Positions 31-61,297 of a DNA stretch of 64,000 nucleotides are shown here, piece by piece (the first letter of the stretch is position 1; every line of letters begins with the position of its first letter). The notes beneath the pieces are model-generated. The model was not told the origin of the DNA, did not search any database, and worked only from the letters and a program-made list of their open reading frames with translations. The translations under genes and the position numbers were made by a program. Origin of the DNA: a virus; IMG/VR virus record IMGVR_UViG_3300005613_000037, positions 8,731 through 72,730 of that record. One strand, given 5' to 3'.

Positions 31-405
31 ATGATACTGAAAACTATATTGGTCATGTTGTTTGTAATTATTGCTGCAATATCGAAGGCAGTTCAGGATA
101 AGATACAATTTCATTTCTATGAGTCAAAATTCAAAAAGATGGGAGATTTTTGGAATCCAGAAAAATCTTGGAAATTCAAATACAAGGATGGTGATCCGAA
201 AAAAGGTGATCTGTTCTTAGGATCGTCAACTTTTTTTGTGGGATTTACTGACGCATGGCATCTTTTTGGTCTGATAAGGAATATTTCACTTTTCTCAGCC
301 ATTGTTTGTGCTTCTGGAATATGGTGGTTGATATTCACATACCCGATATTCACCGGAACATTCACATTGTTCTACAAAGTTATTTTCAGTTCGAAAGAAG
401 TTTGA
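31..405 (+). CDS. Hypothetical membrane protein
   Basis: ORF 22..405; ATG at 31 preferred over GTG at 22. Hydrophobic N- and C-terminal segments flank a WNPxxSWKxKY...TDAWHLF core; AATATATA at 3-10. Confidence 0.7.
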   Translation: MILKTILVMLFVIIAAISKAVQDKIQFHFYESKFKKMGDFWNPEKSWKFKYKDGDPKKGDLFLGSSTFFVGFTDAWHLFGLIRNISLFSAIVCASGIWWLIFTYPIFTGTFTLFYKVIFSSKEV

Positions 406-1000
406 GTAGGTCTTCAGTGATCTTGGTTATCATCTTTTTACCTTTCTCGATCTCGATGTTTGGAATATTTCTTATCGAAGAGAATTCAGGAGCTCCTTTT
501 ACTTGAATGTTTTCTATCAATTTAGTGAGTTTCTGGTTCTTGGCATACTTTCTGAGATAATATCCTTTCAGTTCAAGGACAAATCTTTCCATATCAACTC
601 CTTTATTATTGTTATATTTCAACATCTGAAGTTCATTTGATTGTTTCTCAACAAGAATATACCATATTGAGTTTTTAGATATTTTAACATTTTCTAAAAA
701 GTTCAATGCTTTGGACGCTTTTGTTCTATTTGGGAATTTTGCAACCTTTCCAATGAAATCAACTTTTTCATCTGTCTTCTCGGTCTCTGTTCTCCCAAGT
801 TCAATGTCCTGTTCTTTTGGTATGATTGTCTTTCTCGATGGCATTTTTTCCAATTTCTTGCCATTATCAACATGATTCGGCATAGCAGGTCTGTCAGAAT
901 CCACTTCTGGTATTATGGACGGTTGAACTTCTTCAACTTCCTTGTTGGATTTTTTCATTTCTGAAAACTTTTTGAAACCTTGAACTTTTCTTTCTGCCAT
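386..1000 (-). CDS. Hypothetical protein with CTS-like N-terminus (FKKFSE)
   Basis: 204 aa ORF; AATATATA on the minus strand at 1023-1030. Confidence 0.75.
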   Translation of the reverse strand: MAERKVQGFKKFSEMKKSNKEVEEVQPSIIPEVDSDRPAMPNHVDNGKKLEKMPSRKTIIPKEQDIELGRTETEKTDEKVDFIGKVAKFPNRTKASKALNFLENVKISKNSIWYILVEKQSNELQMLKYNNNKGVDMERFVLELKGYYLRKYAKNQKLTKLIENIQVKGAPEFSSIRNIPNIEIEKGKKMITKITEDLLKLLSN

Positions 1001-1055
1001 GTTTTATTATTTTATTTAATGTTATATATTAAGTTTTTCTGATGGTTTTTTATTT

Positions 1056-1310
1056 TTAGCCATTATGTTTGTAATAATACTTATCGACAGTGTAATTTTT
1101 CATGTTCTTTATGATGTTGAACCTATCAAAGAAGCTTGCAACGAGTGGCTGCAATCTTTCGATAAAACTGTTCATCATGTCATTTTTGAACAGATATGGT
1201 GATAGTGAGTTTGTCAATATTGATTTCTCATAGTCCACATAATCATCAAAATCATCGTGTCTGTGTTTGAGCTCGTGTAATTCAGGCAGGTCTTTATATT
1301 CGTATAACAT
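1056..1310 (-). CDS. Hypothetical protein
   Basis: 84 aa ORF whose start overlaps the upstream stop (coupled). Confidence 0.65.
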   Translation of the reverse strand: MLYEYKDLPELHELKHRHDDFDDYVDYEKSILTNSLSPYLFKNDMMNSFIERLQPLVASFFDRFNIIKNMKNYTVDKYYYKHNG

Positions 1311-2137
1311 TAGTTCGGATAGTAAGATTTTAGTGATTCATCTATCGGCTCAAGTATTTCAAACTCATATTCCGATATCGGTATCATTTCTTTGTATGTG
1401 AGTCCAGTATATATATTTTTCGTGAGCCAATCCATCCAGTATTTTTGTTTCTCGATCGGACTCATTTTCTGCCACTTTTCTTTGTTCATTGCAATTTCAG
1501 TGAAATTCCCATCTTCATCAACATACTTGTCATAATCTTTTGAATTATCATACTTATTGGGTCTGAAATGTTTTGCGATTCCCCTATCGGATAATGTTTC
1601 AAAATATTTGAACTCGGTTTCTATATCAAATCTTATCACATAACCTTTGTTTGTGAGCTTGCTTTCAACTCGGTTCAACCTATCTGGTGATATCACATAA
1701 TCGGTTATCTGTTCTGCCATTATCTCATAATAATCTTCAAAATTATTTTCTCTCTTGAAATATAAGGATACCTTCTGTTTATATGTATCAAACTCAATTG
1801 TGTAGTTTGACACAAGTGATCTTGCCTTTTCGATCATTTGCTTCATCTCTACGATAAGTTCGTAAAAGTTATTGAAGTTGTTGTGGTCTAACTGAACAAT
1901 ACCTTCTTGTTCGGTGTTCATGAAATGTTCAATGTGCTTCTTGAATTCAAAGTTAAGAAAAACAGGTGGACCTTCTTCCAACATATCTATATCAGCTTCA
2001 AATGCAGGTATCATTTTATCATCATACAGGAAATTAAGTTCCATTTCGAATTCAAGACCTATTTCATCTGCCATTTCTTGAACGATCTCTTTGAGGTCAT
2101 CTTTTTTGTAACTTAATGATTCTGTGAACTTTCTCAT
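1310..2137 (-). CDS. Hypothetical acidic protein with CTS-like N-terminus (MRKFTES)
   Basis: 275 aa ORF with a 4-nt overlap with the wedge gene stop. Confidence 0.75.
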   Translation of the reverse strand: MRKFTESLSYKKDDLKEIVQEMADEIGLEFEMELNFLYDDKMIPAFEADIDMLEEGPPVFLNFEFKKHIEHFMNTEQEGIVQLDHNNFNNFYELIVEMKQMIEKARSLVSNYTIEFDTYKQKVSLYFKRENNFEDYYEIMAEQITDYVISPDRLNRVESKLTNKGYVIRFDIETEFKYFETLSDRGIAKHFRPNKYDNSKDYDKYVDEDGNFTEIAMNKEKWQKMSPIEKQKYWMDWLTKNIYTGLTYKEMIPISEYEFEILEPIDESLKSYYPN

Positions 2138-3849
2138 CTGTTATCTCGTAATTTTGAATCGACCACACCGGTCTTTATTATGTTTATTGACTTTAAATTC
2201 TTATCTCTCAGATTCGGTGAGAAGAAGATACCATTTCTATCATACCATCCACCTCTTACTATTGGATATTCATTCGGTTCGAATATTATATCTCCAAGTA
2301 TAGGATCAAGTCCTGGTGTGAAATTGGGTCTGTATGTTGGATCAACTTGAACGCCTACCGGGGCTATCTTTGACTCGGATGCAGCAACCTTGTTTTCGGT
2401 TCTTATTTTGTTTATTCTGTGATAATCTTCATTCTTTTTACTTATGAATTGAACATCGACCGAGTGTATATCATTTATATTTGAAAGTTTTGCAATGATA
2501 TCTGATTTTGGTATTCTGGAAGTTCTGTTTATATCCAAAAAATACTCTGAAACGATATCTGTTATCTGTGAGTTGATCGAGTCATCATTTGAATCGGAGT
2601 ATCTTATCACAAAAACATTCATCACATAATAGCTCAATCTAGGCGAATCTATTCTGAATTTCCTGGTCAATTGTATGTTCCCATTGCTTCTTAGATACTT
2701 GCCTATTTTTGACTTTTCATAATCATCCAATACGAACGCATTTGAATTCACTGAGAAATAATCTGCATTTCTGTTCTTGAACAATCTGATGTTGGGTGTT
2801 GCAACTATGTAAATTATGTTATTATCCTCATACGCATTCACATGTGAGAACACTCCCAATTTCTTGATCTCATAGGCATATTGTTGTGGAAGACCAAGAA
2901 CAAAGTTATTCGATGCGATCGGAAGTATGTTTTTTGTGAAGCTGATCTCTTCTGAGTTTGATCCGAAATTTATATCATTGAATATGAGTACATCGAATAT
3001 CTGAGGTATATCAGCCGTTCCTCCTAAACCATCAAGAACATCATCAACGAATGTGAAATCATTTTGAGTTCTTCTGAATATGTTACCATCTCTACCGTCT
3101 GTGACAATATATCTTACGATTATTGTTGATCCAAGATCTGGTATGTTTCCGAATCCTTGATTTCCGAATATCACATCTATGCCTCCGTTGAATCCTGTTC
3201 TCACAACACATGAATTCTCACCTGGTAAAAGATCATAAAGATGTTTTTTAACGGTCCAGAATTCTCCGTTCACAATTACTTCCACATTGAAATTCTCTAT
3301 ATCCTGATTGCCTTTCAGCGCAACCTGATATGTCTGATTTATCTCACCGGTTCCGGTGAATGTTGTTTCACTTACTCGTCCTTGTATTATCGGTAAGAAT
3401 ATTTGAGTTGACCGACTGACCTGATAGGTAACTGCATCCTGTCCTATATCAAGTGAATAGAAAAGTCCGTTCGTGTTATTTCTTAAAGTTGATCTGTTAT
3501 TGAATGTGACCCGTCCACCTCTCAACTCAGATTCAAGGTCTATGCCAGGTTTCACAACAAGTTTCAATGTTCCAGTTGCTGATATTGCTCGTCCTGGGAT
3601 GTGTCCTGCGAATATTGCTGCATTTCTTACTATTTTTGGATTTGATGAGTTGGGTTGACTGAGGTCAAAACCATTTTTTGAATTTTTCAGATAAAGAAAT
3701 GAAAGTTGTTGCATTTTTTCGATCACATTCAATATCATGCCAAAAGGAGATGCAGGAGAGAATGTGACATCTGCTTTATTATGTTCTCTTCTGAGGAACC
3801 TTTCGACCTCGCCTTTTATGTTATTGAATGTTATCTGTGTAAAATCCAT
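2134..3849 (-). CDS. Baseplate wedge subunit (T4 gp6 / baseplate J-like)
   Basis: 571 aa; pattern IVRNAAIFAGHIPGRAISA...IIQG...VIVNGEFW...DVIFGNQGFGNIP...IIVRYIVTDGRDGN is typical of gp6-like proteins. Confidence 0.85.
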   Translation of the reverse strand: MDFTQITFNNIKGEVERFLRREHNKADVTFSPASPFGMILNVIEKMQQLSFLYLKNSKNGFDLSQPNSSNPKIVRNAAIFAGHIPGRAISATGTLKLVVKPGIDLESELRGGRVTFNNRSTLRNNTNGLFYSLDIGQDAVTYQVSRSTQIFLPIIQGRVSETTFTGTGEINQTYQVALKGNQDIENFNVEVIVNGEFWTVKKHLYDLLPGENSCVVRTGFNGGIDVIFGNQGFGNIPDLGSTIIVRYIVTDGRDGNIFRRTQNDFTFVDDVLDGLGGTADIPQIFDVLIFNDINFGSNSEEISFTKNILPIASNNFVLGLPQQYAYEIKKLGVFSHVNAYEDNNIIYIVATPNIRLFKNRNADYFSVNSNAFVLDDYEKSKIGKYLRSNGNIQLTRKFRIDSPRLSYYVMNVFVIRYSDSNDDSINSQITDIVSEYFLDINRTSRIPKSDIIAKLSNINDIHSVDVQFISKKNEDYHRINKIRTENKVAASESKIAPVGVQVDPTYRPNFTPGLDPILGDIIFEPNEYPIVRGGWYDRNGIFFSPNLRDKNLKSINIIKTGVVDSKLRDNR

Positions 3850-4265: not shown

Positions 4266-4270
4266 TCAGT

Positions 4271-6446: not shown

Positions 6447-6992
6447 GTGGATACATTGAAAACATTGGAGGTTGATAGGCTTATCAAAAAGCTGGAATTT
6501 GTAATATCAGATTATGAATATCAATCTGAGTTAATGAGTGGTGTTGAAAGACATTTTCAAACATCTGTCAGTGAATTATTGAAAGAGTATCCACAGCTTT
6601 CTGAATTTTATGAAGAGAACAAGTTTGATGATGGATCTGAATCAATTGATATCGAGCAAAATAGTGATCAAAGTGTCATAAAAGATCTTTATAAAAAGAT
6701 AGTCAAAGAGACACATCCTGATAAAACGGCTGATTCAAAGATGAATACGCTGTTCAAAGAAGCAAGTCAGGCATATAAGAACAAGGATATAGTTGATATG
6801 ATCAGGTATGGACATGCCTTGAACATTGACATTGAGGATATCCCAATTGACAAGATAAAGGAAAGGATCGAAATGATCGAAAAGAAAACTGAATTCTTAA
6901 AGAAGACATACACTTGGAAGTGGATGGTAACAGATGACCAGATCGAAAAAAGAAAAATAATAATTCAATATCTCAGGTCCAACATCATATGA
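6447..6992 (+). CDS. J-domain (DnaJ-like) co-chaperone
   Basis: IKDLYKKIVKETHPDK...LFKEASQAY contains the HPD signature; GTG start. Confidence 0.8.
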   Translation: MDTLKTLEVDRLIKKLEFVISDYEYQSELMSGVERHFQTSVSELLKEYPQLSEFYEENKFDDGSESIDIEQNSDQSVIKDLYKKIVKETHPDKTADSKMNTLFKEASQAYKNKDIVDMIRYGHALNIDIEDIPIDKIKERIEMIEKKTEFLKKTYTWKWMVTDDQIEKRKIIIQYLRSNII

Positions 6993-7611
6993 TATTCAAT
7001 TTCAAACCTCGTTTATCAATTATTTCTTCGAATTCCTCTTTTCTGAGAATTCTCTTATAAACATCATTTGCCTGTCTTGGATCCTGCAACTGCCAATCAT
7101 TTCCGTTCGATGTGGTATATATGAAGTTTTTATTATCATCAACTATTTCAATTGTTCTTGATGTCAGTTTATTGTAAAAATCATTGATGTTGCCGGTCAG
7201 CTTATAAAGTTTGGCTTCTTCCCATTGTTTCAAAGCTGTGTTCCATGTCTGAAACATGATATATTCTGGATTTTCAAGTTCGTTTGCATTCTGGTCATAT
7301 ATCAACATGAATTTACAAGGTTTGTTAACGAAGGTTTCATAGTTATCGGTTTCTTCTACTTGAGTTTTTTTCAGTCCAAGTGATATCAATGAGTTCACAA
7401 AATCAACATCATTTGCCATTTCATCTATATCAAGTTTTGTTTCCTGAGAAAGTTTCAGTTCATCGAATATATCAGTGAGTTCTGCTCCGATCGATGCAAG
7501 AAGAACATCATGCCACATTGAAAGGGATTCTTTCAGGTCATCTATCAATTGAAAGTTTGTATCTATTTCAAACTGTTCCAAGAATTTTTTAAATGTTTTA
7601 ATGTTTTGCAT
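6985..7611 (-). CDS. Hypothetical protein with CTS-like N-terminus (IKTFKKFLE)
   Basis: 208 aa ORF; AATATATA at 7619-7626. Confidence 0.75.
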   Translation of the reverse strand: MQNIKTFKKFLEQFEIDTNFQLIDDLKESLSMWHDVLLASIGAELTDIFDELKLSQETKLDIDEMANDVDFVNSLISLGLKKTQVEETDNYETFVNKPCKFMLIYDQNANELENPEYIMFQTWNTALKQWEEAKLYKLTGNINDFYNKLTSRTIEIVDDNKNFIYTTSNGNDWQLQDPRQANDVYKRILRKEEFEEIIDKRGLKLNII

Positions 7612-7641
7612 ATCACTATATATATTAAACTTTCAAACAGA

Positions 7642-13756: not shown

Positions 13757-15154
13757 ATGAGAAAATATTCCGAGAAATTCGTATCTGAGCACAAGAAGCT
13801 ATCACATGCCTTGATCGGTTTTGAATTTGAGTTCTATATGAAGGACCTTTCATATTATAAGACATTGGAAATGCTCAATAGAGATCTTGATCCGGTAAAG
13901 GTTCATGGATTCAGACAATATCACTCTGATTTTGAGGTTGATTCAAGAAACTTCAAGATAGAACCTGATACCTCAGGTGGTAGTAACATGGTTGAATTGA
14001 TAACAGGTCCGTTGCAATATTCCGAGGCAAAGATATATCTTGTCAAGATATTGAATTTCATAAACAGATTCGGATATACCAACGATAAGTGTTCATTGCA
14101 TATGAACATATCATTTTCCGGTGAGAAGGATCTGAATGACCTCAATATTCTTAAATTGATATTGAACACTGATGAAGACGAAATATACCGGTTCTTCCCA
14201 GATAGAAAGAACAACATCTATGCGAAATCTGTAAAGAATCTTATTCCTTACAAACAATATGATTATTTCAATGTTCCGATCAATTCGGTGAAGAACTCAA
14301 TGAAATTGCCCAATGACAAATATTTCGGTATAAATTTCACAACCATAACAGATAACAAGAAGACACAGAGGATCGAGTACCGTTACATTGGTGGTGAGAA
14401 CTATGAAAAGAACATAGGCACCATCATTTATTTTCTTGATAGATTCATTTTGGATTCATTCAATTCGGTTGATGTTGGTTTTGATAATAAGGATGCAGAA
14501 AAGCTTGAAGAATTCATGGATGAGAATATCAATAAGTTCAGAACATTCTCGAATTTTGACAATTTCATTGTTGAGTATCCTACAATTGAGTTACAGGTCG
14601 ATATGGAAAGTGATTATTATAAGATAGAATCCAACTTTTCGAGAATGTATGATCAACTTTTCGAGATTGTTGAAAGTTGTGATGATCTCAAAGAATGTAT
14701 CATAAATTTCGACACTGATAGAAAGGTGATCGAAGTAGTTGATGCAACGATAAAGGCAATACTTACAGTGAAAAAGTCAGAGTTCATAAACTGTATCATA
14801 CTTGATGGTATCTTCGAGTCGTGCAATTTTCATGGATGTGAGATAAGTGATTCTCATCTCGTCAGATCAAGTGTTCACGCATCTGATGTAAACGAATCAA
14901 AATTATTGGCCTGTCATGTTGATCAATCAACTTTGGTGGATTGCTTCTTTGTGAATGGTAAATTGGATGGATCAATGGAAGGTGGTGTGTTCAGGTCAGG
15001 TGAGCTTGGTCCATTCGCATCGATATCACCAGAAACCAAGATAATTCACGATAAGGGTTATGGTAACTTCTTTGATACGAGATTTGACCAAGATGAAAAA
15101 TTCGATAAGGATTCTCTTGTTTTCCCTAAAATGAAATTTGATTTCAAGAAATAA
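13757..15154 (+). CDS. Putative amidoligase (COOH-NH2 ligase) with C-terminal pentapeptide-like beta-helix
   Basis: IGFEFEF, FKIEPDTSGG...VELITGP, TNDKCSLHMNISF, KYFGINF and RIEYRYIGG motifs; C-terminal 5-residue periodicity. Confidence 0.75.
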   Translation: MRKYSEKFVSEHKKLSHALIGFEFEFYMKDLSYYKTLEMLNRDLDPVKVHGFRQYHSDFEVDSRNFKIEPDTSGGSNMVELITGPLQYSEAKIYLVKILNFINRFGYTNDKCSLHMNISFSGEKDLNDLNILKLILNTDEDEIYRFFPDRKNNIYAKSVKNLIPYKQYDYFNVPINSVKNSMKLPNDKYFGINFTTITDNKKTQRIEYRYIGGENYEKNIGTIIYFLDRFILDSFNSVDVGFDNKDAEKLEEFMDENINKFRTFSNFDNFIVEYPTIELQVDMESDYYKIESNFSRMYDQLFEIVESCDDLKECIINFDTDRKVIEVVDATIKAILTVKKSEFINCIILDGIFESCNFHGCEISDSHLVRSSVHASDVNESKLLACHVDQSTLVDCFFVNGKLDGSMEGGVFRSGELGPFASISPETKIIHDKGYGNFFDTRFDQDEKFDKDSLVFPKMKFDFKK

Positions 15155-15165: not shown

Positions 15166-16989
15166 ATGAAAAAATTCAATGAATTCATAAATGAAGAGGT
15201 CGGTATAAAAGGACTCAAAGAGATCGTAAAGGATAAAAAACGATGTGAGATATATTTCCACAAAGACCTTGATGGTGTTACAAGTGCAATTGCCATGAAG
15301 GTTTTTTTGAAAACCTATTATGGTATCGAATGTGTTGATGCACATCAGATACAATACGGTGGTATGGAATTTGCCATCAAGGATCACAAAGCAGGTAATT
15401 TGCCTGTGTTGGTTGATTTTGCACACTCAAAACCAATGTTCACAATTGCAACCGATCACCATGATTCACAGATAGGTGGTGAAGATACAGAGGCAACTTA
15501 TTACAAATCTGCAAGAGCCAATGTTGAGACAATATCCGGTGAGATCGCCTATTCAGATGTTTTCGGACCGACTGATATTGAGCTGATCAAAACAGTTGAT
15601 TCAGCAGACTTTCTGAAACATGACCTTAAACCAAGTGACATACAGAATGCCATCTTCAAGTTGGATAAGGAATTGGGTGGTGAAAAGAACCGTTTTCTTA
15701 TGGGTCTTGTGACAAATAGATTATTACTTGCTTATAAGAACAAGAGGATCACGGTCGAATCATTGGATGGTAGATCACAGCACGATAATAAGAATCTACT
15801 TGAATGTTTGGTACTTGATTCGAATGCAAGTCTTTTGTCGATATTCAATAACATAAGACATTATGTGAACAATGCAAGAACGAGTGATAAGGCAGGTAAA
15901 TTGGCAACCTCACAGGAGATAACTGAGAACCTTATGGATTATATAGAGAGAATGAGATCTTATAAATTCATTGAGGATGAGGATGATGTTGTTGAATATG
16001 ATCCATCGAACTGGAAGGCTCAAAAGTTATTAAGACAAGGTAAAAAGGTTCAAAAAGGATCAAACTTCGATCCTAAGTATAAGATATTCATTCAATATGG
16101 TGGTGGTGCCATGTTCAAACCTGGATCATATGACAGATATGTTGCATTTGAGAATAATCCTGAAGCAGAATTTTTCTGTATGGTATGGCCAATGGGTCTG
16201 ATACAGGTAAGTGGAAATCCTTTCAAAGAAAAAAAGTTGAAAGGAGTTGATCTTGGTAAGATATCAAAAGAGGTGTTGGCAAAACACGAAGAGATGTTAA
16301 AGAGGATCACAATTGGTCTGAATGATCTGAAAGAAGAACTTGAGACATCAAGTGATTGGAAAGCAATGAAACGACAAGAAGGAGAAGAGTATAAAGGTGT
16401 TGGATTCAAATTCAGTGACCTTAAAGCGTTCTATTCGGATTGTATAACAAAGAACAACGAGCTGGTTGATATTGGATCTGAAAACTTGAAGCCTCAGATG
16501 GACAAGTTGTATGAAGATATGGGTCAGTCTGATAAACAAATGCTTTCAGAATATCGAATATCTGTGTGGGAACTTATAGTGAGAAATTCCGGAGGTCATA
16601 AATCGATAACAAATATACAAGGATTCAATTTCTTGAAATACAATATTCCTGCAATGGAAGTTGCCTATGGTGTGAAGCGGTTTCAAGATGTCATGAAAAA
16701 GGTTGCGAGAGAATTTGTCAACACATTGAAAGAAAAGATCGACATGGTTGATTCTGGTGGTGAGATTGAATATGATACTAAGGCGGTTGACTTTCAGGGT
16801 ACTGTATCGAATGAGAACTTTGATTATTATGTAGTGAGATCAGGTAAAGAATCCAAAGTAACAAAGGATGAATTTGTGAAAATGGGGTCGAGCAATGCCA
16901 TGAAACAAAAGGACAGGTCAAACTTCACAGTTGATCATCAAAGAAAAAGAGTTATTGCAAAATTTGAAAGTTTCAAAAAAATCGCTTAA
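15166..16989 (+). CDS. DHH/DHHA1-family phosphoesterase
   Basis: FHKDLDG, VDFA and TDHHDS motifs with a C-terminal SGGHK; N-terminus MKKFNEFINEE. Confidence 0.75.
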   Translation: MKKFNEFINEEVGIKGLKEIVKDKKRCEIYFHKDLDGVTSAIAMKVFLKTYYGIECVDAHQIQYGGMEFAIKDHKAGNLPVLVDFAHSKPMFTIATDHHDSQIGGEDTEATYYKSARANVETISGEIAYSDVFGPTDIELIKTVDSADFLKHDLKPSDIQNAIFKLDKELGGEKNRFLMGLVTNRLLLAYKNKRITVESLDGRSQHDNKNLLECLVLDSNASLLSIFNNIRHYVNNARTSDKAGKLATSQEITENLMDYIERMRSYKFIEDEDDVVEYDPSNWKAQKLLRQGKKVQKGSNFDPKYKIFIQYGGGAMFKPGSYDRYVAFENNPEAEFFCMVWPMGLIQVSGNPFKEKKLKGVDLGKISKEVLAKHEEMLKRITIGLNDLKEELETSSDWKAMKRQEGEEYKGVGFKFSDLKAFYSDCITKNNELVDIGSENLKPQMDKLYEDMGQSDKQMLSEYRISVWELIVRNSGGHKSITNIQGFNFLKYNIPAMEVAYGVKRFQDVMKKVAREFVNTLKEKIDMVDSGGEIEYDTKAVDFQGTVSNENFDYYVVRSGKESKVTKDEFVKMGSSNAMKQKDRSNFTVDHQRKRVIAKFESFKKIA

Positions 16990-31325: not shown

Positions 31326-31627
31326 AATATTTTTCTTATTCTTTCCTTTCTTAATAGTGGTTTTATGGCAACAACTAAATCATCACACCATGTATATTTA
31401 ATCCTTGCAAGTTCTGGATTCAGTTCCGAGTTGTTGACCTTTTCACTTTCTTTGAACATATTGATTATTGATATTACATCACTATCATCTTCTCTCCAAT
31501 ATAATTCTCTTATGATCTCTGCTGAATCGGTTATGAACTCGTACACTTTCCTATCTTCGATATACAGAACAAGTAATGTGGTTTTTCCGTGATATTCTTG
31601 ATATGTGGTTGCGTGAATTATTTTCAT
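31322..31627 (-). CDS. Hypothetical protein with C-terminal RKERIRKIL motif
   Basis: 101 aa, coupled between clpP and the methyltransferase. Confidence 0.65.
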   Translation of the reverse strand: MKIIHATTYQEYHGKTTLLVLYIEDRKVYEFITDSAEIIRELYWREDDSDVISIINMFKESEKVNNSELNPELARIKYTWCDDLVVAIKPLLRKERIRKIL

Positions 31628-34763: not shown

Positions 34764-35585
34764 ATGGAACACTTGAACAAATTTGACAGATTCAATGAGA
34801 AGGAAGAAAAATGGATACAGGATGCCATTAAATCGCCTGGTGCTTTGAGAAAGAAACTAAATAAAGGTAAGGATGAAAAGATCACTATGAAGGATATCAA
34901 TGATAAGATAAAAGAACTTGACAAAAAGGATAAAGATCCAAAGAAAAAAGGTTCTCAACTTTCTAAAAGTGATGCCAAGTTGAAAAAACAATTGGTTCTT
35001 GCCAAGACACTTAAAAAGGTGAAAGAATCTCATTCTGAAACAGATAATTACATGTTCTTTGCAAATTTAGAGAACATATGTTCCATGGTAACAAAAATAT
35101 TAGAGATGGATAAACATGAGATTGATGAAATGTTGACTGAAGGTCACGATTGGGCAACTGATCATATCTCATCTGCGAAAGAATCAATAGGTCATGTACA
35201 TGATTGGTTGATGACACACGACCCAAAGAATGTTGAATATCATCAGGAAGATCCGGATTTTGTTTCAAAGTTCGATGAGTATTCCGAACCGGTATCAGAA
35301 GGTTTTTTCGTTGATAAAAAGAAAATGAAAGAAGATATAAGTCGAGATTACAGAAAGATTGCACAAACCATACGCAATATTGAAGATTCGAAATCAGATT
35401 ATAAACTTAAGCCATATAGGTCAGGTTGGTCAGAATCGGTTAAAAATATGATAAGAAATTTCAAAAGAAAGTGGGACAATAAATTAGAAGATATGGGTGC
35501 TATCGAAGCAGCTCCTATCGAAGCTGATTTAAGGGAAAAGGTAAAACTATTGAATGATCAGATTAAAAAATATGATAAACTTTGA
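34764..35585 (+). CDS. Modular hypothetical protein with CTS-like N-terminus (MEHLNKFDRFNE)
   Basis: WIQDAIKSPGALRKKL basic module, then NYMFFANL...HDWATDHIS; several xxE|S-type sites. Confidence 0.75.
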   Translation: MEHLNKFDRFNEKEEKWIQDAIKSPGALRKKLNKGKDEKITMKDINDKIKELDKKDKDPKKKGSQLSKSDAKLKKQLVLAKTLKKVKESHSETDNYMFFANLENICSMVTKILEMDKHEIDEMLTEGHDWATDHISSAKESIGHVHDWLMTHDPKNVEYHQEDPDFVSKFDEYSEPVSEGFFVDKKKMKEDISRDYRKIAQTIRNIEDSKSDYKLKPYRSGWSESVKNMIRNFKRKWDNKLEDMGAIEAAPIEADLREKVKLLNDQIKKYDKL

Positions 35586-36672: not shown

Positions 36673-38526
36673 ATGATCTTAAATTTTAAAAGATTCAATG
36701 AATCAATAAATAAAAATGTGCCTTTTTATCTGTCCAAAGGTCTGAGACAGATCCTTGGTGTCATAAAAGATGAAGGTAATGTTTATGCAAAGGCAATTTT
36801 AGAAAATCATAGTAATGATATTGGATCTGATATCACATTCATCAATGTGACCAAACAGAATGACATTCTCAGTTTCATATCCGATGACCGTGTTATGAGG
36901 TTGTTCAAGACATCCAAGCAGAAAGATTTTGATGATTGGTTTGATAAGGTTTCGAATGATGAAACATCAGATGTATGGATACAGATGAGAAATCCAATAA
37001 AAGTTGGAAAATTTCTTACCAAGTTTGCCTATTTATTGAGTTTAAAGTTGGATGATAGAACACAGGAAAATTTTGTTAATTCCTATAAATCAACATATGA
37101 TATTATCAATGACAATTTCACTGACATTGAAATTGTCAAAGGAGAATCCATGAGAAAATGGTTCTTAGAGTCAAATTTTGAGAGTGATCGAGGGCAATTG
37201 GGTAAATCCTGTATGAGATATGAGAGATGTCAGCCTTATTTTGATATCTATTGTGAAAATCCAGATGTTTGTTCAATGTTGATTCTTCGATCAAAAAAAG
37301 ATTCGAGTAAAATAAGGGGAAGGGTCATTTTGTGGGAGACAAATATGGGAACATTCATGGATAGAATATACACAAATAATGATTCAGATATTGTTCTGCT
37401 CAATCGGTATCGTGATATTAAGAAAATGATAGAGTATCCGAATGATCAATATGTTCAATTGGCTGAGTGTGATTTTGAATTGTATCCTTATCTTGATAAT
37501 TTCAAGTGGCTTGATGTTGATTCGTGTAGGTTATATTATGAAGTGTCAGATGATAGTGATAAAAGAAAGTTACAGAATGCAGATGGCACATACACGGAAA
37601 ATGCAGTTTGGAGTGAATGGGAAGGTGAATATATTGACGAAGATGAGGCGGTATATTGTGAGTATTATGGTCATGTGCTCAGAGAGAATGCAGTTTATTT
37701 GGAATATGACGGATATTGGTACCCGGCAAGTTCAAATGAAGTATGTTTCTCAAATTATTTCGAAGAATATTACCACAAAAATGAATGTGTTTATTCTGAG
37801 TTTTTAGAATCTGATATACCAAGATCCGAATCCATCGAATATTATACATCACCAAATTCAAAACCGGATTTTATTGCAAATGAACTGATATCCTTGCTCA
37901 TACAAGTTGAGTATGACGGTAACGAGTATCGATCAATGATCGAACATTTGATTTTTGATCCGATCGAAAATAGATATAGGTTCAAAGATGAAACTGTTCA
38001 ATTGGGTGATCATAGTGTTTTAATAGGTGAATTTCTTTCTCAAAAGGTAGATCCAATTTCAAAGAGTGAGTTGATAGATAATATCAGATCATCAAAGGTT
38101 AGTGTTGATATTGATAAATTGCTTAAAAATATGTTGAATATTAATACCGGTGAGGATTTTTCAATCATATTGCGGTATTTTCTAAGGGATAGTAACTTAG
38201 GTCAAAGGATCATAAAGAACAGTGAATTTTATGAGGTTTTGAAATTCTTTTTGATACTTCATATCATAATGGGTAAGGATAAAATATCTGATGTTATGTA
38301 TAATCGGGCCACATACTCTTATAAGAGATTCAATCAACTTATTATAGATGATCGGATGGATCCATATCTTAACATGATATCAAAGGAGGTACTTGATATT
38401 CTGTACGATAAGCATGATTGGCGTGTGAAACTGGGATTCAAGTGTTACAAACTGGCACTTCTTGTAAGGAATCATATCATTGATGATCCGATATCAAAGT
38501 TCACATTTGATGAAAAATACAACTAA
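36673..38526 (+). CDS. Conserved phage protein (SCMR...RVILW...MDRIY...YPYLD) with CTS-like N-terminus
   Basis: 617 aa; MILNFKRFNES; aromatic/acidic repeats WSEWEGEYIDEDEAVYCEYY in the middle. Confidence 0.7.
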   Translation: MILNFKRFNESINKNVPFYLSKGLRQILGVIKDEGNVYAKAILENHSNDIGSDITFINVTKQNDILSFISDDRVMRLFKTSKQKDFDDWFDKVSNDETSDVWIQMRNPIKVGKFLTKFAYLLSLKLDDRTQENFVNSYKSTYDIINDNFTDIEIVKGESMRKWFLESNFESDRGQLGKSCMRYERCQPYFDIYCENPDVCSMLILRSKKDSSKIRGRVILWETNMGTFMDRIYTNNDSDIVLLNRYRDIKKMIEYPNDQYVQLAECDFELYPYLDNFKWLDVDSCRLYYEVSDDSDKRKLQNADGTYTENAVWSEWEGEYIDEDEAVYCEYYGHVLRENAVYLEYDGYWYPASSNEVCFSNYFEEYYHKNECVYSEFLESDIPRSESIEYYTSPNSKPDFIANELISLLIQVEYDGNEYRSMIEHLIFDPIENRYRFKDETVQLGDHSVLIGEFLSQKVDPISKSELIDNIRSSKVSVDIDKLLKNMLNINTGEDFSIILRYFLRDSNLGQRIIKNSEFYEVLKFFLILHIIMGKDKISDVMYNRATYSYKRFNQLIIDDRMDPYLNMISKEVLDILYDKHDWRVKLGFKCYKLALLVRNHIIDDPISKFTFDEKYN

Positions 38527-40441: not shown

Positions 40442-40933
40442 TTAAAAATCCATTTTTTCCACTTCACTGACAATATAATCCAAAAACGAATCAAGTTCAT
40501 ATTCAAGTCCTTCACAGAATTCAAAGATGTCATATGATATTCCATCATGTTCCTTTGAGAAATCCGGCACAGCTGCTCCGGTGTTGAAATAAACTATCCT
40601 ACCATCTATTTCACCTTCTATCTCTATATGGTCTAAAATGATGTCTGGGACGGTGATCGTTCCGTTTATGTATGTTTCATCTCCATAGTGTTCAACATCT
40701 CTTAGGATGAATTTAAATGGGTATGGACCATCATATTCAAAGGTGATATCATTTTCAAGATAGTTCAATTTTTTGTGTATTTCTTCGACCTCTTTATTGC
40801 CTTTTGCGTATGCGTCCAAGAAGTCTCTCTCATCTTTTGATATTGAATCTATTCCTTTATCCTTTATTTTATCGAGTATCTCATCAAGTCTTTCCTGTAT
40901 TGAAAATCCTTCATATCTCATTAAATGTTTCAT
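40442..40933 (-). CDS. Hypothetical protein with CTS-like start and RLDEILDKI...GIDSISKDERDFL motif
   Basis: 163 aa; AATATATA 4 nt before the ATG. Confidence 0.75.
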   Translation of the reverse strand: MKHLMRYEGFSIQERLDEILDKIKDKGIDSISKDERDFLDAYAKGNKEVEEIHKKLNYLENDITFEYDGPYPFKFILRDVEHYGDETYINGTITVPDIILDHIEIEGEIDGRIVYFNTGAAVPDFSKEHDGISYDIFEFCEGLEYELDSFLDYIVSEVEKMDF

Positions 40934-44445: not shown

Positions 44446-44832
44446 ATGGATAAATTAATGACGTTTGAATCCTTTTCCAATGAATTGGATTATGAAAAAT
44501 ACTACCACTTAGTAGAGGATATCATTTTACTCGAAGAGGTAACCGCTGGATCGGTGGATAATCCTAATTCTAAGGCTGCAAAGATGATAAAAAATAAGTC
44601 TATAGATAGTGGAATATCACAAGGAATACTTAAACAAGTGTATAAACGCGCAATGTCGGCCTGGAACGCAGGTCATCGTCCAGGAACTCCACAGGCAGCT
44701 TGGGCAACTGGCAGAGTAAATTCTTTTATTACTGGTGCAGGCGGTGCAAGAAAAGCTGATGCTGATCTTTGGAAAAAAGCAAAAGCTCAGAAAGCTAAGA
44801 AGAAGAAAAATAAAAAAGGTAAGAAAAAATGA
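44446..44832 (+). CDS. DUF5824-like protein with CTS-like start and Lys-rich tail
   Basis: SGISQGILKQVYKRAMSAWNAGHRPG...WATGRVNSF...DADLW. Confidence 0.7.
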   Translation: MDKLMTFESFSNELDYEKYYHLVEDIILLEEVTAGSVDNPNSKAAKMIKNKSIDSGISQGILKQVYKRAMSAWNAGHRPGTPQAAWATGRVNSFITGAGGARKADADLWKKAKAQKAKKKKNKKGKKK

Positions 44833-45071
44833 AACATTTAAAAAGAATAGATGAAAGTTCTGATATCAGTGAAATGATACTCAACAGATCATTTAAAGAT
44901 TTTTCTAGGAAGTTAGGTATTGATCCTGTGTGGTTGGCAGATTATTTACATGAATGTTTTTCATTCAACTTGGATCAGTCTGAGATGCCATTCAGTGATG
45001 AAGAATTTGAAGATATTTTAGAAAAACTTGAAAAATTAAAAATAATATATGAAACACATTTTATTATTTGA
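44829..45071 (+). CDS. Small hypothetical protein (MKHLKRIDES)
   Basis: 80 aa; ATGA overlap. Confidence 0.65.
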   Translation: MKHLKRIDESSDISEMILNRSFKDFSRKLGIDPVWLADYLHECFSFNLDQSEMPFSDEEFEDILEKLEKLKIIYETHFII

Positions 45072-45273
45072 AAATTTCACATCTATCGATAGAACAAGAG
45101 AGCAGGTTATCGAATTATTATCACAATCATCTGATTTTGATATCGAGGATTTAGAAGAGATGTCTGATGATGAATTGGAGGGTCTTTGGAACTCACAGGA
45201 AATGGATGAATGGTTGGATGAATTGGAAAGAGAGGATAATAATTTAAAGAAGATCAATATGGATCAGCTTTGA
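45049..45273 (+). CDS. Small acidic hypothetical protein (MKHILLFENF)
   Basis: 74 aa; overlapping operon. Confidence 0.65.
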   Translation: MKHILLFENFTSIDRTREQVIELLSQSSDFDIEDLEEMSDDELEGLWNSQEMDEWLDELEREDNNLKKINMDQL

Positions 45274-49284: not shown

Positions 49285-50397
49285 TCACTTGAGTATGTTT
49301 ATAACTTCTGGATACCAATCTGCTTTTGTTTCATCCTTACCTTCATAGTCGATCGTATCGAGTACATATCTCATTGCGTTCAATCTTCCTATCTTCTTAT
49401 CATTTGAGTTCACGATCACCCAAGGTGATTTTTCTGTACTTGTTTTTTGGAACATTTCGTTTTTGAAGTCACCGATCATTTCAAATTTATCGACAACTTT
49501 TGCATCGTTCGGTGAGAATTTCCAATATTTAAGTGGGCTTTCTTGTCTGATGTTGAACCTTTGTAGTTGTTTTTCTTTTGTTATCGAGAACCAGAATTTT
49601 ATCAATATCACCCCATCATCTATCAATTTACTCTCCCACACATTTACATTTGACATGAAATCTTTGTATTGTTCTTCTGTACAATATCCCATTACAGGTT
49701 CTACAACAGCTCTATTGTACCAACTCCTGTCGAAGAAAACTATTTCTCCTTCATGTGGTAGGTGTTCTTCATATCTTTTGAACCAATTATTTTTTTCTTC
49801 CTCAGTTGGAACTCCAAGGGCGACAACTCTGAAATGTTTCGGGTTCAAATATTCTATGAATCTTTTGATGGTTGATCCTTTACCGGCAGCATCTCGGCCT
49901 TCGAATACGATAGCAACTTTTTTATTGTTCTTGATGACCCATTCCTGTAATTTTAAAAGTTCTACTTGAATATCATATTTTTCGCCCTCATATCTTTTTC
50001 TTGGTAGAATTGATTCTTCTTGTTCTATTCTGTCAAAATATTCTTCTTTAGGAAATTTTTCTCTTTGTTTTTCCATTCTTTGTGCAAGTCCATCAACATA
50101 TCTGTCAATGTTCCTGATGATTCTTTCTTCTGTGTTCTTAGGTCTTAATTTGAGAATTTGAAATATCTTCCTGAGCAATGCTTCGGTGTTGAGTATCTTA
50201 ATGTTCTCATTGCCGAACTTCTTTTTCATTTCATGTAGAGTTTTTTCCACATCTATGTTCGAATCGCCTTCAATGATATCATTTTTAATGTCGTTCAGAT
50301 ATGATCCGATATTATTAATCAGTTCTGTATCAGTGTCTTTGTAATTCTCATATATTGGATTTGTTCGCGTAAATTCTATGTAATTGGAAATTTTCAT
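49285..50397 (-). CDS. ppk2: Polyphosphate kinase 2 with an N-terminal extension of about 130 aa
   Basis: FEGRDAAGKGS, FFDRSWYNRAVVEPVMGYC, LIKFWFSIT and WKFSPND motifs. Confidence 0.95.
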   Translation of the reverse strand: MKISNYIEFTRTNPIYENYKDTDTELINNIGSYLNDIKNDIIEGDSNIDVEKTLHEMKKKFGNENIKILNTEALLRKIFQILKLRPKNTEERIIRNIDRYVDGLAQRMEKQREKFPKEEYFDRIEQEESILPRKRYEGEKYDIQVELLKLQEWVIKNNKKVAIVFEGRDAAGKGSTIKRFIEYLNPKHFRVVALGVPTEEEKNNWFKRYEEHLPHEGEIVFFDRSWYNRAVVEPVMGYCTEEQYKDFMSNVNVWESKLIDDGVILIKFWFSITKEKQLQRFNIRQESPLKYWKFSPNDAKVVDKFEMIGDFKNEMFQKTSTEKSPWVIVNSNDKKIGRLNAMRYVLDTIDYEGKDETKADWYPEVINILK

Positions 50398-54079: not shown

Positions 54080-54691
54080 ATGAAAAGACACGTAAGAAAC
54101 TTTGATAACTTCAAAAAAAGTAAACTTGAAAAAAATCAAGAGAAATCTACTCCGATACAAGAGAATGTAATGGAGACCGGTAACACTTTGAAGGTGATAA
54201 CAACCATTGATGTTCCTACATCATTGGTGAACGCTTATGCTAAAAAGGCAAAGGATACATTTGATAAAGATGTTCTGAGATTCTATGGTAGAGATGGAGT
54301 TGCAGAAGAGCTAGTTAAATGGGTCGGTATGAACAAATTGAATATCGATGAGATACCAGCAGGAGCATTGACGGGTGATGAAGAACCACAGGTACAACCT
54401 GAAGCTCAGCCACAGGTACAGGCGCAAGTTCAACCTGAGGAGCCACAGATACAGGCACAACCACAAGAAGAGCCACAGGCACAACCACAGGCACAAGGTC
54501 AGATGCAGGCTCAGACAGAGCCTCAGGCACAACCCGAATTACAGACACAAGCACAGCCAGAAGAAGTGCAAGGTCAGTCACAAACAGACTTTGAAGAAGT
54601 TCAGGCACAAGAAGGTGCAGAAGGTGATGAAGAACTAGAAGAAACAGATGAAGAAGAAGGTGCTCAAGGTGAGGAAGAACTACCTCTCTGA
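54080..54691 (+). CDS. Protein with CTS-like start and Q/P/A/E low-complexity tail
   Basis: 203 aa; QPEAQPQVQAQ repeats and an acidic end. Confidence 0.75.
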   Translation: MKRHVRNFDNFKKSKLEKNQEKSTPIQENVMETGNTLKVITTIDVPTSLVNAYAKKAKDTFDKDVLRFYGRDGVAEELVKWVGMNKLNIDEIPAGALTGDEEPQVQPEAQPQVQAQVQPEEPQIQAQPQEEPQAQPQAQGQMQAQTEPQAQPELQTQAQPEEVQGQSQTDFEEVQAQEGAEGDEELEETDEEEGAQGEEELPL

Positions 54692-54767: not shown

Positions 54768-55379
54768 ATGAATTACCTACTTGAATATAAGAATTATGAT
54801 CGGGTACTTATTATTGTTGATGTGCAAAGATCATTCTCAAAATTCTTCACCGATAATTATTTGAAAGCCTTGAAAGAACACTGTAAGAAATTTCCTGAGG
54901 TTTTTCAGATATTTGATAACCATGTTGATGGTAAAAATGTAGATAAGGATTATCTGTATGATGTCGATCCCGATATACCGATACATCACGACCTATATTT
55001 TTTCCCAAATCAAGTTGAACAGATAGAAAAAAGGTACAATTACGATGTCGATGTGGATTTTTATAGAAAAATACTTGATAGTGAAACCTATGACTCAATA
55101 AAGAAAAAACAGGACACTGGTTCTCTTAAACTCGGAGACATGTTCAAAACCAATCAAGGCACGATCATAACTTACATCGGTAACAATCATAAGTGGTTTC
55201 ATTTACCGAAGAGACTTTATGAGATATTTCTGAAATTGAAAAATAGGCCGATAGAAATTGTTGGTGGATCTGATAATGAGTGTCTTGAAGATGTATTCAT
55301 AACGGCTAATTCCATGGGTCTGAACATTCATAAAAATAAGAGTTTTATATATAGCGCTAAAAATTGTCCGATAAAATAA
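54768..55379 (+). CDS. Isochorismatase/cysteine-hydrolase family protein (nicotinamidase-like fold)
   Basis: VLIIVDVQ (catalytic Asp), EKRY (Lys) and IVGGSDNECLEDV (Cys). Confidence 0.7.
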   Translation: MNYLLEYKNYDRVLIIVDVQRSFSKFFTDNYLKALKEHCKKFPEVFQIFDNHVDGKNVDKDYLYDVDPDIPIHHDLYFFPNQVEQIEKRYNYDVDVDFYRKILDSETYDSIKKKQDTGSLKLGDMFKTNQGTIITYIGNNHKWFHLPKRLYEIFLKLKNRPIEIVGGSDNECLEDVFITANSMGLNIHKNKSFIYSAKNCPIK

Positions 55380-60400: not shown

Positions 60401-60481
60401 TGTCTGATCTTCCAATGCTTGGGCTATCTGGTCAAGAGCGACAGACATATTGTTCAAAGCATCAAGTAATTGTTGGTCCAT
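57404..60481 (-). CDS. Tape-measure-like protein with 66-aa hydrophobic repeats and C-terminal S74-type chaperone
   Basis: 1025 aa, Ala/Ile/Gly/Ser-rich helices with repeated AITASSWI units; C-terminal SDMRTKKII...GVIAQEL...VNYNKL. Confidence 0.75.
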   Translation of the reverse strand: MDQQLLDALNNMSVALDQIAQALEDQTFNRPTSDALQSGDFSQTLTKISQGIDQIKEDNKKILDNQETIIKLQKQQSTSESKMFEESGEKKSMLKDGISVIILIAGAVLAIGMAFKLIGQVDFFSVLALSMSLPLIAIAFERIAKMKDLTFSNMLSIFGITTTMALAITTSSYILQGIVPVGPLKMITAILISGMFAVISMSMQKLMMGAALYDKANISAFAIFSMFSAIGAGITAASWIMNLIVPISISQGLTAILIAGTFAVISMNMEKLMAGVAMYDKFKVDANKVFLSLVAIATAITASSWVMGLINPISISQGLTAILIAGTFALISMNIEKLMAGVTAFQRFKVSPFALFTTLTSIATAITASSWIMNLIMPISFTQALTSILIAGIFAGLSYFFEEIAVGIVVIDKLIGIGKLFMIPLFFTSVAAAITASSWILSAVVPLGITQVLTILAIGLSLAVITPLLGASMVLLGKIGTLKDYLIGGLAVVLISTAITTASQILSFGDYSNFPSLEWAGSVGASLLLFGISTLALGVLMTATGGMAAVAMGAGILAIMTLAGTISIVSHILNSGNYDKYPSMEWVTGVGNSMVEFGKFVLGASLLAPFLVVGSMVMTAMATSIFLISQTLSRGSYDKYPSKDWIDGVGETLFGFAKYVGMFGVLGVFGLPIILLGSGTLILLAKTISTISNLLNQGEFIKFPSVAWNKGVSSTIRSFMQMIDDFTNLGSIGKGILEKGADLFGLGIVGAVDKILEIDKKFTKGNFINYPGANYMANVQNAIMGLVKTSKLLEGQDLENIEKVDFSKSQNGLVEMADQFDRLSMSIGKFSNSVESINLEKINAIRSLSSSVVLLSMMDPNQFESMMEKIESKSGVFSQLTNDMEEKSRNFKSVAVASNQSQEDRSNEILSEKLDAMTAILADISTVVGSKGTLKNYLMSIRENQIDSNVRSDMRTKKIIRKIGVERGINIYHFTYNFDPNTIYQGVIAQELIGTQFEDCLKLDKNGLYSVNYNKLGIDFKKVNN
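59140..60000 (-). repeat. Approximately 198-nt (66-aa) internal repeats in the tape-measure-like gene
   Basis: ttcattgatatca...gcaaatgttcctgctatcagaattgc at 59481 and 59679; the AITxSS(W/Y) unit recurs about 5 times. Boundaries approximate. Confidence 0.75.
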
Positions 60482-60542
60482 GTTTAACTTTTGTTTATAG
60501 GTTATATATAAATTATATTATTGCATCTTAATATATAACAAT

Positions 60543-61013
60543 ATGAAACAAAGTACGATCATGACATTCAAAAGGTTTTTAAATTATTTCAATATCAAAG
60601 AATCGTTCAAGGAAAAACGATTGAATTCGATATTGCAGAAGATCAACAAAGGTGAGGATATTACCAATGTCGAGAAAAGTTTTCTTGATCGATATGGGGA
60701 CATCGATGAGACAGAGATGAGAGATCATATGATGCTTAGTATGTCATCTACCTATAAGATAATAAGTGACATGCTTGAAAGGGAAAGAAAGGTGATATGC
60801 AATCTTACTGATAGAAATGGTGTGATAAATTCGCCTATCATATCAATAACAAATGATTATGAGAATGAATGTTGTATTCTGAAGCTCAGATCAGGTGAAA
60901 TGTGTAAGATGAAGGATAACTTTCTTTATAATATCATATACGATGTTGAATTGGATCAATTTTCATTGGAAGCACATGATGAATACTTTGAAAAAATACC
61001 AGTGAAAAAATGA
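60543..61013 (+). CDS. Hypothetical protein with CTS-like start and KRLNSILQKI...EKSFLD motif
   Basis: 156 aa; AATATATA 5 nt before the ATG. Confidence 0.75.
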   Translation: MKQSTIMTFKRFLNYFNIKESFKEKRLNSILQKINKGEDITNVEKSFLDRYGDIDETEMRDHMMLSMSSTYKIISDMLERERKVICNLTDRNGVINSPIISITNDYENECCILKLRSGEMCKMKDNFLYNIIYDVELDQFSLEAHDEYFEKIPVKK

Positions 61014-61297
61014 TATTCAATTTCAAGCAATTCAAAGAAGCGGTATCGGGAACAGAACTTGTTGGAAATCATATGGGTCCTGGATATCCACAACAGGTAA
61101 ATAAAGCAAACACATTGACATCAACAAGCACAGATGCATTGCTTTGTAATATCGATGATAAGATATACACATATGATGATTATCAATCGAAATATCACGA
61201 ATATCTAAAAATCGGAGGAACCCCTCTCACAGGATTCAATCAACAGAATTTAGATCACATCATACTCAAACTTACGGAAGATACAGAGGAATCTTAA
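61010..61297 (+). CDS. Small hypothetical protein (MIFNFKQFKEA)
   Basis: 95 aa; ATGA overlap. Confidence 0.7.
   Translation: MIFNFKQFKEAVSGTELVGNHMGPGYPQQVNKANTLTSTSTDALLCNIDDKIYTYDDYQSKYHEYLKIGGTPLTGFNQQNLDHIILKLTEDTEES

Follow-up and report, generated by a model that had tools for sequence, protein, structure and literature searches.

That phage T4 has a capsid-targeting sequence (CTS), by which the genes of internal proteins can be recognised, is well known. In the T4 record, IPII and IPIII both start with MKTYQEFIAE followed by A, and IPI with MKTFKEFTS..ITE, again followed by A; gp24 starts with MAKINELLRE followed by S, the protease gp21 with MNEPQLLIE followed by T, and the scaffold gp22 also opens with a CTS-like peptide, MLKEQLIAE followed by A. 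N-terminal propeptides are removed from T4 Alt and gp24 by the prohead protease gp21. In phiKZ, 201phi2-1 and SPN3US, 8-19 head proteins are cut after Glu by a gp21-related protease; the propeptides are believed to direct proteins to the prohead interior, and the packaged and ejected protein mass is large. The first 10 residues of T4 IPIII suffice for packaging, gp21 cuts after L/I-X-E, and within the CTS residues 4 and 7 mainly drive targeting, residues 8 and 10 processing (PMC9026906). T4 has three internal proteins, all injected inhibitors of host restriction enzymes, with “at least 10 reported” across the T-even phages (PMC12373910). The subject here is a similar peptide at the N-termini of otherwise unrelated proteins encoded in a 64-kb stretch of viral DNA, positions 8,731 to 72,730 of IMG/VR record IMGVR_UViG_3300005613_000037 (“the window”, meaning this whole stretch), and in the genomes of its megaphage relatives. 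The explanation toward which we lean, if only a little past even, is that these N-termini represent a greatly expanded T4-type capsid-targeting system, in which a portable address peptide of 10-12 residues (the tag) would work like the T4 CTS.

The window is part of a single 78.6-kb viral contig of 34% G+C, ~13% complete by the CheckV estimate, so that the whole genome would be close to 600 kb. The contig encodes a helicase, NAMPT, PPK2, a patatin-like phospholipase, ClpP, ClpS, and T4-type tail proteins, namely a gp6-like baseplate wedge and a gp5-like hub with lysozyme. The only nucleotide match of the window in the phage collection is LR745206, an uncultured phage of 634,780 bp, where 62 of the 107 open reading frames (ORFs) of the contig have a homolog, mostly in syntenic blocks. 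LR745206 belongs to a group of the largest known megaphages, which has no cultured member (PMC9723777). A search for a relative nearer to the window phage found none, the top helicase identity being ~70-74%. LR745206 and LR756502, both complete (635-642 kb), were used as reference relatives, with one ORF caller for all sequences. Two ORF sets were drawn from the contig, 103 ATG ORFs for motif counts and 107 for scoring with a position-specific scoring matrix (PSSM).

A preliminary description of the window cited 20 tagged N-termini, and all of them are present at the coordinates it gave. The motif [FYW]xx[FYW] falls within residues 2-15 of 29 of 103 ORFs, compared with 14.4±3.0 for shuffled N-termini and 11.7±2.9 for internal segments, and the longer [FY]xx[FY]x(1-3)E is found in 12, compared with 2.1 and 1.8, respectively. 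The PSSM was trained on LR745206 alone and then applied to the contig, to avoid circularity; its threshold is the 99th percentile of an internal-segment null, and a score of 8.2 or more defines a strong class. Thirteen of the 107 contig ORFs exceed the threshold where 1.07 are expected, or 14 if one extra register is allowed. The excess of tags therefore holds against both shuffled N-termini and internal segments.

The tag was at first described by a single consensus, including Glu. There are really two types, however, and Glu lies within the tag in ~62% of the core-tagged window ORFs, not in all. Sequence logos from LR745206 give type 1 as MK[YH][LI]Kx[YF][EK]x[FY]E[SA] and type 2 as M[IL]KK[YFW]xxF[IL]xE[SE], at times shifted by one residue. 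By PSSM score, 11 of the original 20 candidates are strong and two moderate; for three more the only support comes from orthology or from a sub-type that occurs in relatives, and the remaining four (1310-2137, 386-1000, 19468-20004, and 42315-43220) are weak or unsupported. One strong case, at 30156-30503, was absent from the original list. It is given here with the other strong cases (scores are PSSM scores).

6985..7611, minus strand: tagged ORF, 208 aa; type 1 tag MQNIKTFKKFLE then Q, score 10.8; tag kept in the LR745206 ortholog (MRYIKSYKTFKES)
15166..16989, plus strand: tagged ORF, 607 aa, weak DHH phosphoesterase (E=2e-5, just below the cut-off, from residue 29); MKKFNEFINE then E, score 16.3; LR745206 ortholog reads MISKYNQFINEE
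23439..24815, minus strand: tagged ORF, 458 aa; type 2 tag MLKKYLEFIKE then S, score 21.7, the best in the window; LR745206 ortholog (59% identical) bears the type 1 tag MKWLRNFELFKEA instead
30156..30503, plus strand: tagged ORF, 115 aa; MKRFIDFLKSFFGF, score 12.3, with the match starting ~4 residues in; no family from a Pfam scan
33561..34754, plus strand: tagged ORF, 397 aa; type 2 tag MITKYSKFFE then S, score 10.5; the non-obvious start is taken as right because the LR745206 ortholog (MIKKFNQFLENN) aligns from the same Met
34764..35585, plus strand: tagged ORF, 273 aa; MEHLNKFDRFNE then K, score 9.7; all family matches sub-threshold
36673..38526, plus strand: tagged ORF, 617 aa; type 2 tag MILNFKRFNE then S, score 8.2; LR745206 homolog reads MISRYNKFRENL
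40442..40933, minus strand: tagged ORF, 163 aa; type 1 tag MKHLMRYEGF, score 14.1; orthologs in LR745206 and LR756502 both read MKHLMRYEGY
44446..44832, plus strand: tagged small ORF, 128 aa, DUF5824; MDKLMTFESF, score 11.8; first of three in tandem
45049..45273, plus strand: tagged small ORF, 74 aa; type 1 tag MKHILLFENF, score 17.6
54080..54691, plus strand: tagged ORF, 203 aa; MKRHVRNFDNF, type 1 shifted by one residue, score 13.9; LR745206 ortholog reads MKHIRTYENY
54768..55379, plus strand: tagged ORF, 203 aa; MNYLLEYKNY, score 11.7; member of a 1,240-protein megaphage family

The two moderate cases and the three supported by orthology or sub-type are as follows.

49285..50397, minus strand (moderate): PPK2 (E=1e-81, residues 133-355) with an N-terminal extension of ~130 aa; degenerate tag MKISNYIEF, score 6.7; the LR756502 ortholog starts MINNFIKFINEE, the LR745206 ortholog has MPVYNFHKFINEE at an internal Met
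60543..61013, plus strand (moderate): ORF, 156 aa; tag-like IMTFKRFLNYFNIKE then S, ~5-6 residues in, score 5.6, just below the 99% null
13757..15154, plus strand (uncertain member): ORF, 465 aa, weak amidoligase-like (Amidoligase_2 E=0.0014, below the Pfam cut-off, from residue 20); variant tag MRKYSEKFVSE then H, aromatic spacing 4, score -2.9, below the call threshold; LR745206 ortholog reads MRKYSDKFLSQ
44829..45071, plus strand (uncertain member): small ORF, 80 aa; MKHLKRIDE then S, score -3.0, a sub-type with a single hydrophobic residue replacing the aromatic pair; it fits the MKHLKxYNES / MKHIKRFNEA sub-type frequent in LR756502 and LR745206
61010..61297, plus strand: ORF, 95 aa; MIFNFKQFKE then A, score 3.5; canonical type 2 tag MIKKFYQFINE in the LR745206 ortholog, with an identical SGTELVG after it

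The tagged proteins are unrelated to one another, as had been proposed: beyond residue 18, none of 21 window proteins resembles another. Pfam and PHROG scans of tagged proteins mostly gave no match. Among the functions previously suggested for them, only PPK2 is solid, with the DHH and amidoligase matches below Pfam cut-offs. The supposed cysteine hydrolase has no Pfam match and a non-significant fold resemblance. The only Pfam-supported HAD protein in the window (52373-52930) is untagged, and the tagged gene probably meant, at 33561, has no family match, only a DxD-like motif seen by eye. Where domains can be placed, they begin beyond the tag (residue 29 for DHH, 20 for the amidoligase, 133 for PPK2). 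The tag is also missing where its absence had been reported, from the helicase, NAMPT, and the following four proteins, of which the last two are structural controls.

31624..32235, minus strand: ClpP, untagged (PF00574, E=1e-65, at contig 40366-40890)
52096..52371, minus strand: ClpS adaptor, untagged (PF02617, E=8e-20)
2134..3849, minus strand: gp6-like baseplate wedge, untagged (phrog_219, E=4e-13; no PSSM match)
26578..28425, plus strand: gp5-like baseplate hub with lysozyme, untagged (phrog_430, E=1e-15; score -2.5)

The larger scale proposed for this system relative to T4 was, if anything, understated. In the two complete relatives 13-15% of ORFs are tagged, 118 of 882 in LR745206 and 135 of 917 in LR756502; the proportion in a 508-kb contig, over its first 200 kb, is 27 of 251. 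The position of the tag is sharply terminal. The aromatic pair begins at residue 7 in 68 LR745206 ORFs, at residue 5 in 27, and at residue 6 in 25, over a background of ~11 ORFs per position; 95 PSSM matches start at residue 2 and 29 at residues 3-4, with only 34 internal matches (residue 31 onward) in a proteome of ~190,000 residues. An in-frame Met precedes several of these internal matches, which are therefore probably mis-called starts. After removal of the tag, 102 tagged LR745206 proteins form 96 unrelated clusters. Ortholog pairs between the two relatives, defined on residues 21 to the end, agree in tag state in 367 of 386 cases (odds ratio 128, p=4e-30), and the disagreements are mostly sub-threshold variants or start miscalls. 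The type of tag has switched between orthologs in three pairs from LR745206 and LR756502 and in one from the window and LR745206 (23439). Since orthologs can carry the other type, the two look functionally equivalent and interchangeable.

The family of the 54768 protein illustrates how the tag sits on its passenger. Across 120 homologs, tag positions 3, 4, 5, 7, 8, and 10 are conserved, positions 2, 6, 9, and 11-13 vary, and the globular part of the protein begins near residue 14. An AlphaFold2 model (mean predicted local distance difference test, pLDDT, 82.8; predicted template-modelling score 0.82) has residues 1-8 below pLDDT 50 and a detached short helix, residues 4-11, ahead of the first strand. 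The window protein is the founder of a set of 1,240 unannotated proteins of ~204 aa, found only on megaphage-like contigs, in which D18, K88, and C172 are invariant. These residues fit the triad of isochorismatase/nicotinamidase enzymes; membership in that group is not established, a Foldseek comparison with the PDB being non-significant (best E=0.04, TM-score up to 0.45). A role in NAD salvage is a lead, because the gene lies ~7 kb from the NAMPT/NMNAT pair.

Several other arrangements of tagged genes were seen. In LR756502 (10-100 kb), an array of small genes takes up most of the first ~100 kb, nearly all starting MK[HY]LKxYK[IL]FES, which resembles a hugely expanded counterpart of the hyperplastic internal-protein loci of T4. 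The three tandem small genes of the window (44446-45273) adjoin an HNH-like ORF (43341-44366). A corresponding place in LR745206 (~132.6-134.9 kb) is occupied by three tandem tagged small genes, starting MRLKRFNKFKINES, MFYLRKFNENS, and MRHLKRFNEST, which adjoin the only radical-SAM gene of that genome. No positional enrichment of tag copies at C-termini was found in LR745206, with only a few isolated cases; tag-like C-terminal peptides occur on small proteins at 208377-208574 and 615382-615699 (KIVKFESFISKK and FLRAYELFESKF), in one case on a protein also tagged at its N-terminus. They recall T4 Alt, which is processed at both ends. A further IMG/VR contig (G002; 182,728 bp, 25% G+C), related through its helicase (60% identity), has 45 tagged ORFs of 246 (18%) with the consensus MKYLKLFENF, in several of which the tag is followed by a shared ...SEIDxIC... 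segment. It has no confident capsid and protease genes despite a CheckV completeness of 84%, and is therefore probably a megaphage fragment.

The comparison with the T4 CTS held up well, in its functional residues, its modularity, the head genes of the relatives, and a cross-check on T4 itself. Type 2 tags reproduce all four positions with a known function in T4, and the tag of 15166..16989 does so in identical register (F4, F7, I8, E10); in the other tags the aromatics corresponding to positions 4 and 7 are shifted by 1-3 residues. Although the tags were defined without use of Glu, 62-69% of them have one within 0-2 residues of the second aromatic, as opposed to 16-20% of internal matches. 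P3 of this Glu is I, L, F, or V in ~90%, and P1' is mostly S or A. When T4 (35.3% G+C) was put through the same pipeline no ORF reached the threshold; the two best N-termini among its 243 ORFs by the megaphage-trained model were IPII and IPIII. The third-best T4 N-terminus belongs to gene e.6 (AF158101, 69312-69905; MNTLKKIVEFIRTK), which encodes an uncharacterised protein ~2.3 kb from the e / ipIII / ipII cluster.

No prohead protease was found in a PF03420 search of the contig of the window (~13% of the genome), and no capsid gene, so the head machinery is inferred from the relatives, where the gp21-like protease anticipated in the preliminary description is indeed present. Protease, scaffold, and gp23-type capsid genes were found in both LR745206 and LR756502, and the same protease occurs on 266 IMG/VR contigs. 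At 198546-200669 in LR745206 is a 707-aa protein with a head maturation protease match (phrog_207, E=4e-30) and a weak match to PF03420 (Peptidase_S77), followed by a 560-aa major capsid protein of the gp23 family (Pfam E=1.8e-26). The N-terminus of the latter, KKWSPVLEN, resembles the NKWKPLLEG of T4 gp23, and its propeptide contains WMSEYAE. Past its protease domain, the 707-aa protein has ~10-12 tandem 13-residue repeats, YSEY[LI]AENLDKNIx, and then an acidic tail. The core of the repeat, Y-x-x-Y-[IL]-x-E, is a pattern also seen in the type 2 tag and in YQEFIAE, the core of the T4 CTS. Of the 89 aromatic-xx-aromatic-[ILV]-x-E motifs of the LR745206 genome, 11 lie in this one protein and a further 25 at N-termini. 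The repeat is almost invariant in more than 60 contigs, down to 73% protease identity. The protein is read here as a protease-scaffold fusion whose repeat would be both a docking and a cleavage unit, and we infer that the tags mimic it.

The megaphage tag is probably homologous to the T4 CTS. The proposed route of a tagged protein would run as follows. The tag would form a short amphipathic helix, showing a hydrophobic residue and two aromatics spaced by three (h-xx-[FYW]-xx-[FYW]), and would dock its passenger on the scaffolding core of a T4-type prohead during head assembly. A gp21-type prohead protease would then cut after the following Glu ([I/L/F]-x-E, then S or A), and the freed passenger would remain in the head, presumably to be ejected into the host along with the DNA. 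A more specific proposal, to which we would give a little less than an even chance, is that more than 100 proteins (13-15% of genes, including PPK2 and a DHH-type phosphoesterase) are pre-loaded in this way through two CTS classes that mimic the protease-scaffold repeat, so that the injectome could be read from sequence; the near-invariance of the repeat would then reflect its role as a hub for many clients. A literature search found no paper on stereotyped CTS-like tags on more than 100 megaphage genes, with the results for capsid targeting swamped by papers on human immunodeficiency virus.

The main alternative, which seems unlikely, is that the tag is a genuine address or docking peptide with some other destination, such as a membrane (as a membrane-binding amphipathic helix), a phage-built compartment, an assembly hub, or a chaperone. 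Its Lys-rich, aromatic character and the short helix of the AlphaFold2 model would suit this, as such helices often bind membranes or hub proteins, and proteins so acidic and so very numerous fit less comfortably as capsid cargo. Such a destination would leave unexplained, however, the Glu in its [ILF]-x-E / S-A context, the residue-by-residue match to the T4 CTS together with the cross-validation in T4, and the likeness to the protease-scaffold repeat.

The tagged genes have an upstream feature of their own, which raises the quite improbable alternative that the conserved 5' coding sequence serves the mRNA. A AATATATA-type box of the form [AT]ATATA[TA]A lies upstream of many genes, 26 of 107 contig ORFs and 140 of 882 in LR745206, its end falling consistently 4-5 nt short of the ATG; if this is a -10-like promoter element, the spacing suggests that the transcripts are leaderless or nearly so. 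Examples in the window include the following.

4251-4270: TATATA box
7612-7635: TATATA box
13737-13756: TATATA box
24855-24875: TATATA box
36653-36672: TATATA box

Measured to the ATG, the end of the box is 7 nt upstream of 6985..7611, 4 nt upstream of 36673..38526, and 5 nt upstream of 60543..61013. Almost all tagged genes or their operons had been said to follow the box, which is an overstatement, since only 8 of 14 tagged ORFs on the contig are directly preceded by it, as are 18 of 93 untagged ones (p=0.005). In LR745206 the figures are 52 of 118 tagged and 88 of 764 untagged ORFs (p=1e-15), and the odds ratio is near 6 in both genomes. This association and the fixed distance are what would be expected if the first codons of leaderless transcripts were selected for initiation or promoter function, and there is a mild third-position excess of A at codons 4, 6, and 9. 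Yet the box is missing from 56% of tagged genes and the tag from 63% of genes with a box, and the same peptide is sometimes internal or C-terminal. Synonymous codons also vary at the conserved positions: Ser12 is encoded from two codon families, TCN and AGY, Leu4 by TTA and CTA, and Lys, Tyr, and Phe each by both of their codons, all at near-genomic ratios. The amino-acid substitutions, by comparison, are conservative, with F, Y, and W replacing one another at the aromatic positions, and I, L, and V likewise interchanging. The tag is selected at the protein level. The box itself marks a regulatory class enriched in tagged genes, for which a “late” identity is only suggested. It is also found upstream of the gp5-like hub (3 nt from the ATG) and the adjoining tail gene; the gp6-like gene has none. 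An untagged patatin-like phospholipase gene (32279-33205, Pfam E=6e-26) also lies behind a box; a patatin gene has been reported for LR745206 and Mar_Mega_1 (PMC9723777).

It is slightly less probable still that the tag is a degradation signal, read by the Clp system, that would set when a class of phage proteins is removed. The ClpP and ClpS encoded in the window invite the idea, and N-terminal basic-hydrophobic motifs can act as ClpX signals; neither ClpX nor ClpA was seen, with no search aimed at them. ClpS, however, recognises L, F, Y, or W at a free N-terminus. Residue 2 of the tag is mostly K, R, or I (also N), so the initiator Met would normally be kept and no N-degron exposed, and the new N-terminal residue left by a cut after Glu would be S, A, N, or E, all of them non-destabilising. 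A mark for destruction on 13-15% of the proteome would also be hard to rationalise. A leader peptide for a modifying enzyme, as in radical-SAM systems for ribosomally synthesised and post-translationally modified peptides, is very improbable: LR745206 and LR756502 have one radical-SAM protein each, and in LR745206 its gene adjoins three tandem tagged genes, but a single generic gene (Radical_SAM plus Fer4_12, no SPASM match reported) would have to serve more than 100 tagged genes spread over 635 kb, the contig of the window has none despite its 13-14 tags, and the tag lacks a Cys- or Gly-rich core. An artefact of chance, composition, or paralogy is effectively refuted, for although Lys, Phe, Asn, Glu, Ile, and Tyr have codons rich in A+T and occur often at the N-termini encoded by a genome of 34% G+C, the excess survives the shuffled and internal-segment nulls, T4 at 35% G+C shows no such excess in the same pipeline, and clustering finds the protein bodies unrelated.

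Turning back to capsid targeting, several observations weigh against it. A single head containing 118-135 different proteins would be unprecedented. Glu is missing from the vicinity of ~15% of tags, the common FE[NS][FY] sub-type has a Glu without I or L at P3, and the LR745206 ortholog of 13757..15154 has Gln where Glu would be expected. The tags of IPII and IPIII are identical, so the T4 cross-check amounts to one independent event, at roughly p=0.01. The median isoelectric point is 4.9 for tagged and 5.5 for untagged proteins; the tagged ones, few of which have membrane segments, are thus the more acidic, whereas T4 internal proteins are basic. The protease and capsid genes, missing from the contig itself, have no TATATA box in the relatives, so they may not be co-expressed with the tagged genes.

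If the tags do target capsids, they would provide a sequence-only cargo list, ~40 times that of T4, for uncultured phages of 0.5-0.65 Mb, and a large part of the megaphage genes of no known function would gain a role. About one in eight genes on the contig is tagged, and such phages may deliver more than 100 proteins with their DNA, compared with three in T4. Because the three tagged proteins of T4 counter restriction, the search for new counter-defence and host-takeover functions could naturally begin with the tagged set. The contents of very large capsids would perhaps be organised by a protease-scaffold fusion in which a unit for docking and cleavage is repeated, and the tags might serve as a second natural set of packaging signals for protein delivery by phage heads.

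Among known systems, the loading of encapsulins offers a parallel in principle, in that a short terminal peptide suffices for many kinds of passenger to be loaded into an icosahedral shell as it assembles. Encapsulin peptides differ in being usually C-terminal, in binding the shell protein itself, and in remaining uncleaved. The propeptides of the phiKZ-like phages offer another comparison. They are mostly longer than 100 residues, however, and share no N-terminal consensus, whereas the megaphage tags are stereotyped peptides of 10-12 aa; the cleavage motif in phiKZ-like phages is S/A/G-x-E or A-x-E, in contrast to the I, L, or F at P3 of the tags. On both counts the tags fall outside the phiKZ-like propeptide class. 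The cargo of those phages is also known from proteomics, whereas the megaphage list comes, as noted, from sequence.

The T4 CTS remains the closest match. Like it, the tag is found at the extreme N-terminus, extends over 10-12 residues, is attached to otherwise unrelated proteins, and has hydrophobic or aromatic residues three apart; in about two thirds of the tags [ILF]-x-E follows, with S or A at P1'. The differences are of scale and elaboration: there are 118-135 tagged ORFs per megaphage genome (13-15%) rather than three internal proteins, two interchangeable classes of tag rather than one, passengers that include large enzymes (PPK2 and the 607-aa DHH-like protein), and a protease fused to a scaffold of 13-residue repeats.

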